64,000 bases of DNA from a phage. The notes beneath the pieces were generated by a model. The model searched no databases, was not told the DNA's origin, and saw only the letters and a program-made list of their open reading frames with translations. Where the stretch lies: the NCBI GenBank assembly GCA_038314665.1, contig GCA_038314665.1_3677.1; one strand, given 5' to 3'. This document shows, one piece after another, positions 54,816 to 61,646 of this stretch. The stretch's first letter is position 1, and every line of letters starts with the position of its first letter. Position numbers and translations under genes: made by a program.

Positions 54816-55118
54816 ATGAAACGTTATAAACCATACACTTTTGAAATCGATTTCGAACTTGACGATATGTTTACTGTGGAAGCTCAAGCAGTTGTCCAGT
54901 TGCCAGACTCGGCGTGCCGTGACTCTGATGTTGACTATTACGGATTTAGACAAATTACCGATGTGCGTGTTTACCACAACGGTAAAGAGGTGGACTTCCA
55001 CCAACTACCAAACGATATGCGCCACTCAATTTACAAACGTGCAGCCCGTGAACTAGAGTCCTATCTGGATGCAGCGACGACAGCAGCTGCATTTGCTGAA
55101 GAAGTTGGAGGTTTCTGA
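54816..55118 (+). CDS. hypothetical protein
   Basis: 100-aa ORF with AAGGAAG RBS. Confidence 0.45.
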   Translation: MKRYKPYTFEIDFELDDMFTVEAQAVVQLPDSACRDSDVDYYGFRQITDVRVYHNGKEVDFHQLPNDMRHSIYKRAARELESYLDAATTAAAFAEEVGGF

Positions 55119-55513
55119 TGATTACAAGTGTGAAGATTATCCAATACCACTTAACCAAATTGGGAGATGCTGAAAAAGAGCTTGCAGAAGTTCTGAATAG
55201 TGGATATACTTTGCTATCATGCGCCTGCTCAGATACCTACGCTGTGTGGACACTTACCCGGAAGGAAGAGCCTGCATGGGTCTTGGTGCCAAACCCTAAG
55301 ATTATTAGTGAGGTGGATGACTACCCTCAGGACGGCGTGCCGGAAGACTGGGTAGTATGGGAAGGTGGTGAAAACCCTGCACCAGGTAAGTGGGTAAAAT
55401 ATAAACTACGTAGTGGTGCACAGTACGCTGACTACTCTGATAACCTAGACTGGAGTCATTCTTCACTAGGATCGTCTGCAAGTTCATATGATATCGTTGC
55501 TTTTCAGGAATAA
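55118..55513 (+). CDS. hypothetical protein
   Basis: 131-aa ORF, ATGA coupling. Confidence 0.45.
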   Translation: MITSVKIIQYHLTKLGDAEKELAEVLNSGYTLLSCACSDTYAVWTLTRKEEPAWVLVPNPKIISEVDDYPQDGVPEDWVVWEGGENPAPGKWVKYKLRSGAQYADYSDNLDWSHSSLGSSASSYDIVAFQE

Positions 55514-55524
55514 GGAGAAGGTGG

Positions 55525-56007
55525 ATGTCAGATTTTATGTGGAAAGTTGGTTATTCCTCCCCTGAAATGTGTAAGGCCTGTTTTGTGAAAATAGGTCGCG
55601 AAGATATCGACAAAGTGATCCTTAAGTTTCGTGATGTGGCTGTGATCGGCAACCGAGTGCTTAAGCACTTAAAGAATCTGAAGCTCACCAAAAAGAAATT
55701 CTTCGGACTTTTCGAAGAGAAAGTTGATGCTTGGACCCATTGCATTCAGGAAGCTAAATCTCACTACAGTGCTATCGTTACCCCAGAACGGGTAGCCAAG
55801 ATGGAAGGACTCATCAACAGCACAGAGTTTGAGTGTCTGAAAGCTGCACTCGATAGTTATCCGAAATGCCTCAAGCACTTGGACAAGTATGTAGAAAAGG
55901 ATGGGGAAATGTATCTCACCCTGGACGCATACTATGAGATGCAAGAAATTTTAAATTTAGATTTGACATTGGTATCCACCGAGTATACAATAGGTATCCG
56001 GGTTTAA
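55525..56007 (+). CDS. hypothetical protein
   Basis: 160-aa ORF with AAGGAGAAGG RBS. Confidence 0.45.
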   Translation: MSDFMWKVGYSSPEMCKACFVKIGREDIDKVILKFRDVAVIGNRVLKHLKNLKLTKKKFFGLFEEKVDAWTHCIQEAKSHYSAIVTPERVAKMEGLINSTEFECLKAALDSYPKCLKHLDKYVEKDGEMYLTLDAYYEMQEILNLDLTLVSTEYTIGIRV

Positions 56008-56012
56008 CACTA

Positions 56013-56041
56013 GGCCCTGCCCGAAAGGGTGGGGCTTTTTG
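56013..56041 (+). terminator. rho-independent terminator
   Basis: GCCCTGCCC-GAAA-GGGTGGGGC hairpin followed by TTTTTG; overlaps the track start of the next ORF, so the real start lies downstream. Confidence 0.65.
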
Positions 56042-56058
56042 CATTAGGAGACAGCAAA

Positions 56059-56823
56059 TTGAAATTTATCTACAAAGAACACTACCACAAAGGTGTTGTG
56101 TGGAGTCTATTTGACGGGTCTGGTGGTGCAGTCATTGACTGGGCAAAAGCTGGGTACCTGTGCCTGTGCTTTAATGCAGAAGGTGCTGATCACGGCAGTT
56201 ATGCAGAGGTGATAACCGATCATCCCAACATTCACTATGTGGATTATTGGATTGACCCATGGTTCCCTCAGGAAACTTTTTGCATGTACCCAGCTCCAGA
56301 CTTTATTCTTGCATTTCCTCCGTGCACGCATTTAGCGGTATCAGGTGCTGCACATTTTAAGAAAAAGCTGGCTAAGGACCCTATGATCCAAATTAATGCT
56401 GTAAAGGATGCTCGGGTTGCGGAAGAGCTGGGAGAGATTTACGATTGCCCGTGGCATGTAGAGAATCCTGTAGGTGTTATGTCCACACTGTGGCGCAAAC
56501 CTGATTACCGTTTTCATCCTTCTGACTATGGCGGGTATTTACCGGAGGATGATGTAAACCCTTGGTTTCCTGAATTTATAGCTCCACGCGATGCCTATCC
56601 AAAAATAACTTGCGGCTGGATAGGTAATGGATTTATAATCCCGGTCACAAAACCTGTCCCGCAAATAGTTGACGCGGTTAGCGGGTATTCCATGCAACAC
56701 GCTAAGCTAGGTGGAAAAAGTGCAAGGACGAAGATGATTCGAAGCCTCACGCCCCGTGGCTGGGCAAAAGCCGTATTCTTAGCAAACGAGCCTGTGGTAA
56801 GGAGCAGAATTAATGGGAAGTAA
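56059..56823 (+). CDS. DNA (cytosine-5)-methyltransferase-like protein
   Basis: Motif I-like LFDGSGG, motif IV-like FPPCTHLAVSG (Pro-Cys), ENV-like HVENPVG; TTG start at 56059 with AGGAGA RBS (start uncertain). Confidence 0.5.
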   Translation: MKFIYKEHYHKGVVWSLFDGSGGAVIDWAKAGYLCLCFNAEGADHGSYAEVITDHPNIHYVDYWIDPWFPQETFCMYPAPDFILAFPPCTHLAVSGAAHFKKKLAKDPMIQINAVKDARVAEELGEIYDCPWHVENPVGVMSTLWRKPDYRFHPSDYGGYLPEDDVNPWFPEFIAPRDAYPKITCGWIGNGFIIPVTKPVPQIVDAVSGYSMQHAKLGGKSARTKMIRSLTPRGWAKAVFLANEPVVRSRINGK

Positions 56824-58891
56824 ATTTATGGCATCTGCATATAACCGTTTCGGTGAGCCAAACCCGAAAGCAACTAAGTATAAAAGTGGGGGAAGTGTGA
56901 AACGAGACTATCGTGATGAAAAAGAGGTTGAAACTGTAGAGACTGTTTTAGAAAATACTAAAATCGTCCCTGTCCCACAACAAAATATCGGTCTGATGGC
57001 TGCACAATATTTTGGTGTGCGATCAGCATTGTCCCAAGAAGACGGTGTGACAGTTACTGCAACATATTTCCCATATTACGACCGCTACGGGAATCTGTCC
57101 GGTTTCAAAAAGCGTGACTGGACGATCCCCAAAGAGCAACGTGGGCACTTTACGACGGTTGGGATCGTAAAGGCTAACTCCCAAATGTTTGGGCAAAAGC
57201 TGTGTGCATCTTCTAACAACCGTAAGCAGATTAACGTTTGTGAGGGGGAAGGCGATGTTATTGCAGCATGGCAGGCTGCATATCAGATACAAGTAAAAGG
57301 GATTCTCACCAACGCTAAAGCCCCGGCAAAGGTGAAACAGTGGGCTAAAGAGGTCCAGGACGGGATCGATGCAGTTATCAACGGGGGTGATCTGGCAGGA
57401 AAACCCTGCCTGCCTTTTGTTGGAATTAACTGTGGATGTGCAAACGCAGTAGATACTTTTGCAAACAATGAGAAATTTATCCGTAGCTACGGAACAGTGG
57501 TCCTTGCAATGGACAACGATGCAGCTAACGAGGTAGAGAAGCAAAAACACGTTATCAAAGGTGTTGAAGCCACACATAATATCGCGGCATTTTTGATGGC
57601 TGATAACGTTTACCACGTGGAATACCCAAGTGAGGTAAACGACCCTGACGGTGTAAAAGATATCCGTGACATGCTGAAGGCTAAAAAGCTGGAAGATATT
57701 GTCAACATGTTCCGTCACCCAGTCAAATATGTGCCTGATGCTGTATCTGATTTAGAAGACTTCTCCATTGAATCTCTTCGTAAGAAGACTTCTAATGGCG
57801 TAGATATCAGCGCGGAGTTCCCTAAATTGCAGAAGATGCTGAAAGGACTTCACAAAGGCACCTTGATGATGCTGACAGGCCCATCTGGTGGTGGTAAAAC
57901 AACTGTAGCCAAGAAACTAGAGCACTGTATTGCAAAATACTTGATGGATCCGACATGCCCTAAAGCCGATGATTATGAAGAGGATGATCGCCTGTGTCTG
58001 ATTCACCTTGAAGAGGACCCTGAGGAAGCAATTAACTCTCTATACGCCAACCAGTTGGGGTTTGATGTTAAAGAGTTTGTTGAAGACCCTAGTCAGTTCC
58101 TGACTGATCAGGAGCATGCTGAGATTCACCAATCTTGGGCCAAGGCGGGAAAAATCAAAGTGTTCAAGCATTTTGGGTCTATTCCTGTAGATGAGTTGAT
58201 CACTAAGCTTAAACAAATGGTGTGTCTGTATCACTGCCGTTATATTGTGCTGGATCACCTGTCCATGGTAATTTCAGGGCTTAATGTTAAGGATGAGCGA
58301 AAAGAGCTGGACATGGCTATGACCCAACTAGCCGCGTTCTGTAAGCAGTTTAATGTGTTTATCTTGGTGATCGCTCACCTGAAACGCACAGAGATTGTGC
58401 CTCCAAAGGACAAGGATGGGAATCCGTTACCTTTCTGGTATCCTGTACGAAAAGAGAACCTTCGGGGTAGTGCCGGATTGGAGCAACTTAGCTGGGTAGT
58501 TGTTGGGGTGGAGGCAGAAGAGATGGTGGATCGTTCCCGTGGACGTGTCCGACTGGTAGGTCTTAAAAACCGCCCAGCAAAAACGTTAGGCATTGCGGAT
58601 ACCTTAGTTATGGATCCTCACACAGGTAAGTTCCATGATGCCAGCAACTGGTACTGGGACAAAGAAATGCAGATGTTCACAGACGGAGAAGGTGGGGAGG
58701 TTGTTTGGAGACCTCAAGCTATGTTTGAGGATCAAGAGCACGCAGTTGTAGAAACACCTGTAGGTAGGGTTGTGGCTGATAAGGTTGTAACTCCTACTGT
58801 TAACCATGTTGACACACAAGAAGACCTTCCGTATGATGATCCGTCCTCTGACCCTGTTCCCGGTTTTGAAGACGATGAAACACCTTTTTAA
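56813..58891 (+). CDS. primase-helicase (TOPRIM-like N-terminal region plus DnaB/gp4-like helicase)
   Basis: 692 aa; acidic VCEGEGDVIAA and AMDNDAANE in N-terminal half; helicase Walker A LTGPSGGGKT, Walker B IVLDHLSMV, motif NLRGSAGLEQ in C-terminal half; no N-terminal Cys4 zinc domain. Confidence 0.6.
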   Translation: MGSKFMASAYNRFGEPNPKATKYKSGGSVKRDYRDEKEVETVETVLENTKIVPVPQQNIGLMAAQYFGVRSALSQEDGVTVTATYFPYYDRYGNLSGFKKRDWTIPKEQRGHFTTVGIVKANSQMFGQKLCASSNNRKQINVCEGEGDVIAAWQAAYQIQVKGILTNAKAPAKVKQWAKEVQDGIDAVINGGDLAGKPCLPFVGINCGCANAVDTFANNEKFIRSYGTVVLAMDNDAANEVEKQKHVIKGVEATHNIAAFLMADNVYHVEYPSEVNDPDGVKDIRDMLKAKKLEDIVNMFRHPVKYVPDAVSDLEDFSIESLRKKTSNGVDISAEFPKLQKMLKGLHKGTLMMLTGPSGGGKTTVAKKLEHCIAKYLMDPTCPKADDYEEDDRLCLIHLEEDPEEAINSLYANQLGFDVKEFVEDPSQFLTDQEHAEIHQSWAKAGKIKVFKHFGSIPVDELITKLKQMVCLYHCRYIVLDHLSMVISGLNVKDERKELDMAMTQLAAFCKQFNVFILVIAHLKRTEIVPPKDKDGNPLPFWYPVRKENLRGSAGLEQLSWVVVGVEAEEMVDRSRGRVRLVGLKNRPAKTLGIADTLVMDPHTGKFHDASNWYWDKEMQMFTDGEGGEVVWRPQAMFEDQEHAVVETPVGRVVADKVVTPTVNHVDTQEDLPYDDPSSDPVPGFEDDETPF

Positions 58892-58949: not shown

Positions 58950-61379
58950 ATGAGTATGTGGTCTTTCGACCTGGAGGCCTCTGGTTTACTAGAAGACCTA
59001 GATCTTTATTATCACTGCGGCTTGTTTAAAGAGCTGAATAAGAACCGTTTTATGCTGTTCCTTCCTCTAAATGACCGCACACACTACTCTGAAGAGGATA
59101 TAGAGAAGGCTAAGAACTTTATTCTGGCAAAGAAAACTCTTTATAAAGATTTTGAAGTTCGCATAGCAGATTTTTCAGAGTTGGAAGGTTGGCTTACAGG
59201 CAATTCTGACTGGTCACCCACAGCTTTGAACTGCCACAACTGCTACAGCTACGACTTTATGCTGATGGAGAGATTGTCCGGTATTCATTTTGATATGTTC
59301 CGTGATCCTAAGTGTATGGGGACTATCAACGACCACCAGGTTAATCTGTTTGATACATTGGCTATGAGCCGAATTTTGTGGCCTGACCGACCTTTGCCAA
59401 AAGGTTGTCCAGACTCAGTATTTAACCCGGTTACTAAGAAAATGCAGCCTGTTGGACCTCACGGTCTTATGGCATGGGGCTACGCCCTTGGTAACCAGAA
59501 AGTTCAAATTGATGACTGGCGCGATCTCCCGTTGTGGAAGTATGTGGATCGTGTATTCGAGGACGTTATCATCCAGGAGCTACTCTGGAAAGAGCTGGTA
59601 GCGGAATCAAAAGGTGTATTCTACGGCAAATCTGACATGCAGAACTTTATGTACGATCCAGCCAAAGAGAAGCCGAAAGGGTTCAAGAAGATCACCTGGA
59701 AGAACGCATTACGTCGAGGCATGCTGCAGCACTTCCTGATGGAGCTGCAGGCCCGTCAGGGTGTATACTTCGACATAGATGGAGCTATTGCTTTACGTGA
59801 CCGTTGCGATGCGTGGATGAAAGAAATAGCTGATCGTGTTGAACCACAACTGCCTTTAAAAGAGCTGTCAATGTCTCAGCGGCCCAAATTCCCTGAAAAG
59901 CCGTTTAACCAAGACGGGACAATCTCTAATAATGGTTGGAAATGGTTAAAAGATAAGCTTGGCTATCCTGTAGACATGAGCGCTTTAGAGTTCAAAGCCC
60001 CGCCTAAGAGAGCATTTACCTCTACAGGGGATGTCAGCAAGATGGGGATAAAATGGTGTGAAGAGATGGGCTGCAAAGACCCCGATAAGATGGCTGATTT
60101 CTTGAGAGGCTATATTAAGGGCACTTCCACACCACACCCTTTGCCTAAAGAGCTGATGGATCAGGCAATAAGTGATCTACAGCAGAAGCGAATGCCGGAC
60201 TGCAAGATACCTATGAAAATCAGCAATCAGGACGACATTAAGCGGTATCTGATCAGCGCTGGCTGGCTCCCGACAATGTGGAGAACTAAGGATGTAACTA
60301 AAGACAGCAAGAAGAAAGCTCTACCTGATGCAGATGTTGATGCACGAGTATATGCTTATATGGACGAGCTTTTAGAGTCAGAGTATTGTGACCTAATTAT
60401 CAACTTCTGGAACAAAACTGATGCTAAGTTCCAGACAACCGTGCACAAGTTCCGAAGCTTTCCTAACTCCGAAAGGATTAAAAAGGAAGTGTTCGGGAAA
60501 ATACGTAGAAAAGCCAGGGCACTTATTACTTCTCCGCAACTGAAAGATACGTTTGGACACCTGTGCCCGAATCTTGAAAAATTGAACGGAGAGATGGCTA
60601 AAGATATCGTCTTGTGGTTATCATTGCGAAACCGCAGATCGGTCCTTGACCCAATCAAGGAGGATAAGGTTGATACTGGTCTTCTTAATCACCCACGTTT
60701 GAAGATTGACCATAAGCTTCCTGCTAAAAGTTCTGGGCTAACAAACACTTCCAGACAGAAACACAGTATTTGTGCAAACATGCCTAAACCATCTCCTAAA
60801 GTGGTTATGGGTAAAGAGATGCGTAGTCTATGGGGTGTTCCTCCTGGATACTTTCAGATCGGTATTGACGGGTCCAACTTAGAGCAGCTTATCGGGGCTT
60901 GGGGTGCCTTTGAGTTCGACAACGGCCTGTATTATGATGTTGTAAGTAACGGAGACGCACACCAAAACAATGCTGAGGCATATACAAAAGTAGCAGGCAG
61001 AGAGGTGTCCCGTAACGACGGTAAACCTATCACGTATGGTGTTATGTACGGGGCACAAAAAGATAAAGTTGCAGATATGCTGGACATCTCTCCAGAGTTG
61101 GGGCAAAGGGTAATAGATGCACTTTGGGATGCCAACCCCGGTCTTAAGGGGCGCAAAGAGGATCTGGAGAAATTCTGGGAAGCAACAGGTAAGAAGTTTA
61201 TCTACTCTTTTGATGGTCATGCTATCTGGACCCGATCTAAACACTCTTTACTTAATGCATACCAACAAAATGGTGGTGCATCGCTGTGTGACTTAGTCGG
61301 GATACTCATGCACCACCAAATGGTGAAGCGTGGGTGGTACGATGAAGGTGTCCGTCGTATTATTTATTACCATAAATAA
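58950..61379 (+). CDS. family A DNA polymerase, exon 1 (exonuclease, motif A and motif B)
   Basis: 809-aa ORF; N-terminal FDLEASGL (Exo I DxE), motif A GIDGSNLEQL, motif B RNDGKPITYGVMYGA; ORF stops before a canonical motif C region is completed. Confidence 0.65.
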   Translation: MSMWSFDLEASGLLEDLDLYYHCGLFKELNKNRFMLFLPLNDRTHYSEEDIEKAKNFILAKKTLYKDFEVRIADFSELEGWLTGNSDWSPTALNCHNCYSYDFMLMERLSGIHFDMFRDPKCMGTINDHQVNLFDTLAMSRILWPDRPLPKGCPDSVFNPVTKKMQPVGPHGLMAWGYALGNQKVQIDDWRDLPLWKYVDRVFEDVIIQELLWKELVAESKGVFYGKSDMQNFMYDPAKEKPKGFKKITWKNALRRGMLQHFLMELQARQGVYFDIDGAIALRDRCDAWMKEIADRVEPQLPLKELSMSQRPKFPEKPFNQDGTISNNGWKWLKDKLGYPVDMSALEFKAPPKRAFTSTGDVSKMGIKWCEEMGCKDPDKMADFLRGYIKGTSTPHPLPKELMDQAISDLQQKRMPDCKIPMKISNQDDIKRYLISAGWLPTMWRTKDVTKDSKKKALPDADVDARVYAYMDELLESEYCDLIINFWNKTDAKFQTTVHKFRSFPNSERIKKEVFGKIRRKARALITSPQLKDTFGHLCPNLEKLNGEMAKDIVLWLSLRNRRSVLDPIKEDKVDTGLLNHPRLKIDHKLPAKSSGLTNTSRQKHSICANMPKPSPKVVMGKEMRSLWGVPPGYFQIGIDGSNLEQLIGAWGAFEFDNGLYYDVVSNGDAHQNNAEAYTKVAGREVSRNDGKPITYGVMYGAQKDKVADMLDISPELGQRVIDALWDANPGLKGRKEDLEKFWEATGKKFIYSFDGHAIWTRSKHSLLNAYQQNGGASLCDLVGILMHHQMVKRGWYDEGVRRIIYYHK

Positions 61380-61646
61380 CATTGTGGCTTCATAGAGTAA
61401 TCTATGTCGAATAACCTCTTTAACTGCGGGAAGCCTAAACCTTATGGCAAGGTAATCCGCAACGAAGCGCTCAAAAGAGCGAACGCTCAGAGGCCATTCC
61501 GAAAGGAAGTAGACCAGCAAGTGCGGTCGAAATGGGAGGATTCCTGTGGTTGCTTATCATAGGAATATGAGATGGTCCGATCCTACGTGAAAACGTATGG
61601 CTATGCACGTAATGGTGCGGGGTAGCTTAACGACCTACCTGAACTA
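61380..61646 (+). ncRNA. putative group I self-splicing intron core in the DNA polymerase gene
   Basis: Non-coding gap containing, in order, P-like CTGCGGGAAG, Q-like AATCCGCAAC, R-like GCTCAGAGGCCA and S-like GAGATGGTCC elements with short hairpins between; exact splice sites not determined, 5' site probably lies inside the last codons of exon 1. Confidence 0.5.

Follow-up and report, generated by a model that had tools for sequence, protein, structure and literature searches.

The window analysed here, a 64,000-nucleotide (nt) stretch of phage DNA (NCBI GenBank assembly GCA_038314665.1, contig GCA_038314665.1_3677.1), is part of an rV5-like Escherichia coli myovirus of the genus Vequintavirus and carries, at positions 56059..56823 of its plus strand, a gene for a protein of 254 amino acids (aa). 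Our analysis indicates, with a probability that we put at roughly 85%, that this gene encodes an active S-adenosylmethionine (AdoMet)-dependent DNA cytosine-C5 methyltransferase, a member of a minimal, phage-borne family of ~205–260 aa proteins (PHROG 757). We infer the activity of the protein from that of a homologue in phage K42, and its catalytic chemistry from conserved residues and the fold. The gene is already known in kind: it is annotated in near-identical genomes (as ORF231 in phage rV5 and CPT_LL12_214 in Escherichia phage LL12), its family is a named PHROG, and a homologue has been studied experimentally. An earlier note on this DNA had described a methyltransferase-like open reading frame (ORF) of 254 aa at 56059–56823, which is indeed present there, and had proposed a compact enzyme with a C5-cytosine methyltransferase fold, a proposal that is borne out by the PHROG 757 profile, by matches of homologues to the PF00145 profile and by the K42 experiments.

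Central to this reading is the Dcm protein of phage K42, a strain of KarlJaspers, which was described in a 2023 preprint entitled 'Defense mechanism of a bacterial retron supramolecular assembly' (bioRxiv 10.1101/2023.08.16.553469). In that work, mutants of K42 escaping retron Ec86 were isolated, and all four of the four escape mutants mapped to a 711-bp gene, dcm. The preprint further reports that K42 Dcm, when expressed, showed toxicity only if the retron was present and that a C82A/E128A/K175A/K176A mutant was inert; that liquid chromatography coupled to mass spectrometry (LC-MS) detected high levels of 5-methylcytosine (5mC) on the multicopy single-stranded DNA (msDNA) of Ec86 only with wild-type K42 Dcm; and that defence was lost when the CCTGG site of the msDNA was mutated (bioRxiv 10.1101/2023.08.16.553469). 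This trigger of the retron is cited as established in later peer-reviewed papers. The 35 Ec86-sensitive phages belong to the Drexlerviridae, Siphoviridae and Demerecviridae, and Vequintaviruses are not among the families named in the preprint (bioRxiv 10.1101/2023.08.16.553469).

A DNA search recovered the KarlJaspers genome (MZ501090), in which a 711-bp gene is annotated as 'Dcm-like C5 cytosine methyltransferase' and is 94.7% identical at the DNA level to the corresponding gene of phage G29-2. The 236-aa G29-2 protein is in turn 55% identical to the window protein over its full length, and its residues C82, E128 and K175K176 are numbered exactly as those mutated in K42 Dcm, placing K42 residues C82, E128, K175 and K176 at C89, E135, K182 and Ile183 of the window protein. 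Like the window protein, K42/KarlJaspers Dcm belongs to PHROG 757, carries the LFDGSG, FPPCT-L and ENP motifs together with an IRSLTPRGFA block, and is compact, with no separate target-recognition domain. The two differ in phage group, K42/KarlJaspers being a 51-kb siphovirus of the Drexlerviridae whereas the window comes from a ~136-kb rV5-like myovirus; in length, with short extra N- and C-terminal tails in the window protein (254 aa against 236 aa for the K42 type); and at one of the four mutated positions, where K176 of the K42 type is replaced by Ile183.

The catalytic motifs of C5-methyltransferases can be read directly in the translation, where the FxGxGG-like AdoMet motif, the Pro-Cys motif and the ENV-like motif named in the earlier note all occur, as FDGSGG, FPPCTHLAVSG and ENP, respectively (all coordinates below refer to the plus strand). 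Conservation was counted over 101 divergent representatives sharing only 31–56% identity. Motif IV, F86-P-P-C89-T-H-L-A-V-S-G96 (56314..56346), is matched in alignments to the PC of M.HaeIII, DNMT3B and M.HhaI and contains the predicted catalytic nucleophile Cys89 (codon TGC, 56323–56325), which is kept in 99 of the 101 representatives, as are Gly96 in 100 and Thr90 in 90. The Pro-Cys-Thr sequence that the earlier note had called unusual does differ from PCQ, the classical form, yet within this family it is the norm rather than an oddity of the gene, and it is similar to the PCN-DL of DNMT3. Motif VI, E135-N-P137 (56461..56469), is the equivalent of ENV and is placed by hhalign on the ENV of M.HhaI; Glu135, which is predicted to protonate N3 of the cytosine, is kept in 100 of 101 representatives, Asn136 in 94 and Pro137 in 99. 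The motif I region, W15-S-L-F-D-G-S-G-G23 (56101..56127), would form strand β1 and the AdoMet loop, and alignment pairs its FDGSGG (residues 18–23) with the FSGAGG found in M.HaeIII.

The motif II position, where strand β2 ends, is occupied in C5-methyltransferases by an acidic residue, which binds the ribose of AdoMet. The window protein has Asn39 at this position (codon 56173–56175) and 62 of 67 distant relatives have Asp; the active K42-type protein carries the same Asn. An invariant 'ADHG' lies 4–5 residues past the motif II position and may compensate for the Asn.

Profile and structural comparisons point to the same enzyme class. The PHROG 757 profile, 'DNA methyltransferase', matches the window protein at E = 1.2e-86 over residues 2–251. 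When 60 homologues (51–81% identical) were searched at E up to 1, PF00145 matched 32 of them, with a best E of 1.3e-6 and three of the 60 above the 22-bit Pfam cut-off; these matches cover profile positions 4–94 only, corresponding to motifs I–IV. Similarity to methyltransferase family profiles, which the earlier note had named as a check, is thus evident for PHROG 757 and, through some of the homologues, for PF00145, and fails for a Pfam match of the protein itself. A direct PDB sequence search with the single protein returned nothing significant, and PDB profile searches with two family alignments gave weak matches (E = 0.056–0.8) to M.HaeIII, DNMT3B and DNMT2 over motifs I–IV. A match to a short-chain dehydrogenase also appeared in the PDB profile search and was rejected as due to chance. 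An AlphaFold2 model built on 60 homologues reached a predicted local distance difference test (pLDDT) score of 89.5 and a predicted template modelling (pTM) score of 0.90, and Foldseek placed DNMT3A/B/C at the top of its matches (probability 1.00, E ~1e-5, template modelling (TM) score ~0.5). The model supports a class I Rossmann-like methyltransferase fold of the C5-methyltransferase type.

The gene is real and under purifying selection. Compared with its counterpart in phage JES2013, it shows 17 nt differences and 3 aa differences, giving a ratio of nonsynonymous to synonymous substitution rates (dN/dS) of 0.056. A homologue is encoded in 1506 phage records detected by tblastn, ranging from T1-like Drexlerviridae, Klebsiella weberviruses, RB49-type relatives of the T-even phages and other Vequintavirinae to Vibrio and Arthrobacter phages; a large protein database holds 3550 homologues, and an exhaustive HMMER scan yielded 1025 clusters at 50% identity, nearly all of 205–260 aa. 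Both the low dN/dS and the wide spread of homologues argue that the gene is more than a chance reading frame.

The window protein differs from the classical PF00145 enzymes mainly in what lies beyond motif VI. M.HhaI, M.HaeIII and E. coli Dcm carry motifs I, IV and VI in the same order and with similar spacing, but have PCQ and ENV where the window protein has PCT and ENP, possess QxRxR and GN(A/S)V motifs of which neither is recognised in the window protein, and contain a target-recognition domain of 80–200 residues that is absent from it; M.HhaI, for example, is 327 aa long. In hhalign comparisons of the family with M.HhaI, the latter taken alone or together with 120 M.HhaI homologues (all at least 71% identical), motifs I, IV and VI and a 'YxF..DYG' stretch were aligned, and beyond that stretch the alignment is unreliable (probability below 3%). 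The stretch in question places W145-R-K-P-D-Y-R-F-H-P-S-D-Y-G-G-Y on M-N-E-L-D-Y-S-F-H-A-K..L-D-Y-G-I-P-Q of M.HhaI, that is, 'YRF..DYGGY' on 'YSF..LDYGIPQ', so that strand β6 and the first half of motif VIII can be recognised.

Residues 153–229 (56515..56745) take the place of motif VIII and the target-recognition domain without forming a separate small domain. This region holds H-P-x-[DE]-Y-G-G-Y-L-P, resembling 'DYGxPQ', and includes an insert of ~30 residues (153–183) inside the motif VII/VIII region. Where QxRxR would be expected there is a conserved loop of ~20 residues, L-P-E-D-D-x-H-P-x-F-P-x-x-I-P-x-R-D-A-Y, leading to an invariant K182-x-T-C-x-W on strand β7 (184–189), with Y180, K182, T184 and W187 all invariant. 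From β7 to the C-terminal block there are only ~40 residues, arranged as loops and two short helices. In all, the recognition domain is replaced by ~70 well-conserved residues that make up two short segments, in keeping with the earlier note, which had seen no obvious domain of this kind. The C-terminal block, I227-R-S-L-T-P-R-G-W-A-K-A-V-F-L-A-N243 (56737..56787), opens the terminal helix (233–253) and resembles both motif IX (TxRExARL) and motif X of DNMT3 (LLGRSWSVPV, checked in PDB chains).

In several of these features the window protein is closer to the catalytic domains of DNMT3A/B/C. Motif I in both is of the 'LFDG' kind (SLFDG) rather than FxGxG; across the phage family, L-[FY]-D-x-[TS]-G is what is retained, without conservation of the initial Gly of FxGxG. 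Motif IV of DNMT3, PC-x-DL-S/A, likewise departs from PCQ, as does the PCT of the window protein; a C-terminal helix starting with R-[SG]-W/F is found in both (GRSWSVPV in DNMT3, PRGWAKAV here); and the target-recognition region of DNMT3 is very small and made of loops rather than a domain, as in the window protein. Sequence identity between the two is only 12–15%, and the DNMT3 catalytic domains in solved chains measure 273–291 aa. DNMT3 enzymes additionally possess regulatory PWWP and ADD domains, form tetramers and recognise CpG. Among the matches listed, the shortest modelled chain of a solved C5-methyltransferase is DNMT3B 7v0e_H with 265 residues, the full constructs being at least 284 aa, and the window protein (254 aa; family range 205–260 aa) is shorter than the solved C5-methyltransferase chains among those matches.

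By analogy with known C5-methyltransferases, the reaction would begin with the target cytosine being flipped out of the duplex. Attack of the Cys89 thiolate on C6 would then go along with protonation of N3 by Glu135 in ENP; C5 would receive its methyl group from AdoMet, and β-elimination would free 5-methylcytosine. Contacts to DNA are probably made by the catalytic loop (residues 90–100) and by the conserved segments 153–183 and 190–229, which would replace a separate target-recognition domain, much as in DNMT3A/B.

Several observations weigh against an active DNA methyltransferase. The Gly-rich motif I is poorly kept within the family, the acidic residue of motif II is replaced by Asn39 in the enterobacterial-phage clade, and the QxRxR motif VIII and GN motif X were not recognised in profile comparisons with M.HhaI. 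Pfam and NCBIfam searches with the window protein gave no match even at E up to 10, and profile similarity to solved C5-methyltransferases reached only E ~0.7, over motifs I–IV. The CCWGG target of the K42 enzyme was assumed from analogy with the host Dcm and is backed only by msDNA mutants, no genome-wide specificity being given in the text consulted (bioRxiv 10.1101/2023.08.16.553469). The literature searched contained no modification data on virion DNA of rV5-like phages. The BASEL study tested restriction systems of types I, II and III and found Vequintavirinae 'exceptionally susceptible' to them, so no broad anti-restriction effect is evident.

Part of this evidence could also be accommodated if the protein were a catalytically weak or inactive remnant, kept as a DNA-binding or regulatory protein: the degenerate motif I, the Asn in motif II, the unrecognised RxR and GN motifs, scores below the Pfam and NCBIfam thresholds, and the lack of evident protection of Vequintavirinae from restriction in the BASEL study would all fit. 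We regard a remnant as very unlikely, as the Cys and the Glu-Asn-Pro are nearly invariant over hundreds of divergent clusters, which is unexpected for a non-enzyme; the dN/dS of 0.056 speaks against it as well, as does the activity of a homologue that carries the same Asn in motif II and depends on the Cys, Glu and Lys residues (bioRxiv 10.1101/2023.08.16.553469).

The substrate of an active enzyme might, alternatively, be something other than double-stranded phage DNA, either tRNA or another RNA, as for DNMT2, or DNA only in single-stranded or hairpin form. The weak profile match to DNMT2 (E = 0.056) is in line with the first of these. For the second, we take MG1655, the control strain of the retron experiments, to be dcm-positive. 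The preprint reports little 5mC on control msDNA from this strain, suggesting that the phage enzyme acts on msDNA in a way that the host Dcm does not, and the only homologue substrate demonstrated there is the retron msDNA stem-loop (bioRxiv 10.1101/2023.08.16.553469). That target, however, is itself a duplex stem containing CCTGG. DNA enzymes of the DNMT3 type are clearly the best structural matches, the methyltransferase gene accompanies DNA replication genes across several unrelated phage groups, and no RNA-related partner genes were seen nearby. Altogether, a substrate other than duplex DNA appears highly improbable.

A further possibility is that the fold and the covalent Cys chemistry are those of a C5-methyltransferase and the group transferred is a different one. 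CmoX, a phage enzyme with the C5-methyltransferase fold and a PPC catalytic motif like that of the window protein (PDB 8yf3; PMC12783734), is a good structural match to it and carries, unlike ordinary enzymes, an Arg at the position of Asn304 in M.HhaI (PMC12783734). By comparison, CmoX is 333 aa long, with SPPC and with Arg350, its diagnostic residue, where motif X otherwise has Asn, whereas the window protein has 254 aa and FPPC. The C-terminal helix of the window protein begins with a conserved Arg233 (47 of 67 relatives), which may stand at the motif X position, and the cofactor carboxy-S-adenosylmethionine (Cx-SAM) is made by E. coli. An enzyme of this kind, using Cx-SAM from the host CmoA, would produce 5-carboxymethylcytosine, possibly beside 5mC. 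In DNMT3A, which uses AdoMet, the equivalent place in motif X is likewise taken by an Arg (GRSWSV), so the Arg is not diagnostic. MG1655 presumably carries the host CmoA, and in this strain the K42 homologue gave 5mC. This last result comes from LC-MS as reported in the preprint (bioRxiv 10.1101/2023.08.16.553469). Given these points, the definition of CmoX candidates by SPPC rather than FPPC, and the finding that neither a CmoA-like class I methyltransferase motif nor an amide ligase was detected among the window ORFs of at least 100 aa, although cmoX genes usually lie beside phage cmoA and ligase genes, carboxymethyl transfer appears very improbable.

Returning to the DNA cytosine-C5 methyltransferase, its target sequence is possibly CCWGG or a shorter site. 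CCWGG occurs 88 times in the window. Base composition predicts 85 occurrences, so that by this measure the site is not depleted, whereas dinucleotide shuffles give 119 ± 10 and a third-order model gives 146, and these counts are ambiguous as a clue to specificity. Among the short words most depleted relative to a maximal-order Markov expectation are GTAC (145 observed, 219 expected), CTAG (79, 130) and CCAGG (34, 65). The restriction enzyme McrBC needs a purine before 5mC. Many rV5-like phages were isolated on K-12 MG1655, which would fit a pyrimidine–5mC context such as C-5mC-WGG.

More tentatively, and with odds that we place well short of even, the family may represent the smallest natural form of DNA C5-methyltransferase, with DNMT3-like motifs I, IV and X and a loop-read target that is shorter than, or different from, the assumed CCWGG. 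If so, such a target could explain how the K42 enzyme methylates the msDNA hairpin where, in a presumably dcm-positive strain, little 5mC is otherwise found; rV5-like phages would carry a distinctive 5mC pattern and would also be predicted targets of sensing by retrons of the Eco1 type.

In the phage, the gene would be expressed early or in the middle of infection and its product would mark phage DNA after replication, and incidentally host DNA, as suggested by the position of the gene between a promoter, P231, and a primase/helicase gene. The likely benefit of such a mark would be to shield the DNA from those restriction enzymes that 5mC blocks, and its likely cost would be that the methylation is sensed by retron Eco1 (Ec86). 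This putative anti-restriction role is plausible. With regard to the susceptibility of Vequintavirinae, we saw no indication that any of the systems tested in the BASEL study is blocked by CCWGG methylation. In the Drexlerviridae, according to the same study, carrying methyltransferase genes is not simply linked to resistance to restriction.

The coding sequence runs from TTG 56059 to TAA 56821–56823 and is preceded by a Shine-Dalgarno sequence, AGGAG (56046..56050), 8 nt upstream of the TTG, where a ribosome-binding site is also annotated in LL12. The LL12 counterpart is a 765-bp coding sequence, 'DNA cytosine methyltransferase', with a TTG start, and the position of TTG 56059 is the start in LL12, in rV5 (ORF231) and in a database cluster of 254-aa proteins (P0001), as well as in an 80% identical relative (P0002). 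The longest possible reading, from GTG 56029 (56029..56823), would give 264 aa and is the one annotated in the JES2013 record (1034–1828). We rejected it, since the GTG sits in the 3' arm of a G+C-rich terminator hairpin and is for that reason an unlikely start; the JES2013 annotation is probably an over-extension by 10 codons. The earlier note was therefore right that a terminator hairpin overlaps the first possible start, while the uncertainty that it attached to the start codon is largely lifted by the agreement of the Shine-Dalgarno sequence and these related records on TTG 56059.

This hairpin (56012..56037), comprising 11 pairs, seven of them G-C, and a GAAA loop, is followed by TTTTT, and the predicted fold of 56000–56075 has an energy of -22.8 kcal/mol. 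Judged by its sequence, it is a typical intrinsic terminator, predicted to end the transcript of the upstream ORF. Inside the 3' end of that ORF lies a σ70-type promoter-like site (TTGACA-17 nt-TACAAT, 11 of 12 matches; 55963..55991), which corresponds to the promoter 'P231' annotated in phage rV5. Only ~20 nt separate this promoter-like site from the hairpin, and with the promoter upstream of the hairpin, transcripts from the P231 site would reach the terminator before the methyltransferase start. Expression of both the methyltransferase and the primase/helicase could be set by this arrangement, with the hairpin working either as an attenuator or as a 5' structure that stabilises the transcript. 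Over the 72 nt compared (55991–56062), JES2013 is identical.

Downstream, the DNA primase/helicase gene (56813..58891, starting with ATG 56813) shares its first 11 nt with the end of the methyltransferase gene, suggesting co-transcription and translational coupling with the replication module, and is followed by the DNA polymerase gene. With P231, the primase/helicase and the polymerase as neighbours, the methyltransferase gene belongs to this replication module. No second methyltransferase was found in the window, in which neither a DPPY-type motif nor a class I motif I was detected. The DNA polymerase A gene (start 58950) is interrupted by a compact group I intron without an ORF at 61364–61599 (plus strand), which matches the full length of the Rfam model RF00028 at 64.7 bits; the LL12 record already carries an 'intron-interrupted gene' remark.

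The 3 kb around the methyltransferase gene (55000–58000) are 99.5% identical to LL12 and 97.5% to rV5, and 118 phage records match this segment. In a more distant member of the Vequintavirinae, Salmonella phage SSBI34 (2552–4034), the primase/helicase and polymerase genes flank a homologue with 62.5% identity in the tblastn match, and ~450 nt downstream of this homologue is a gene whose annotation reads 'restriction alleviation protein, Lar family'. The E. coli rV5-like segment 55000–58000 is also matched by sixteen records that bear the name 'Campylobacter phage' (host Campylobacter jejuni), of which six, among the matches listed, show ~95% identity. The 'Campylobacter phage' label is attached to homologues of the T1-like gene too. 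Such records carry no annotation and appear to be coliphages that were mislabelled or entered as contaminants.

The window protein provides an example of an annotation missed by Pfam and NCBIfam profile thresholds, and the questions that follow from it are worthwhile but incremental, concerning the target of the family, the way in which DNA is read by a protein of this size, and a possible triggering of Eco1 by the rV5-type enzyme. For the biology of these phages, our analysis places in the rV5-like coliphages, which are widely used as typing phages and therapy candidates, a probable cytosine methyltransferase of the family that triggers retron Eco1 (Ec86). From this family membership one would predict a liability in host range and, possibly, an epigenetic mark carried by the DNA of rV5-like phages. 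More broadly, PHROG 757 would represent a natural minimal C5-methyltransferase, and a test case for the least protein needed to recognise and methylate DNA.

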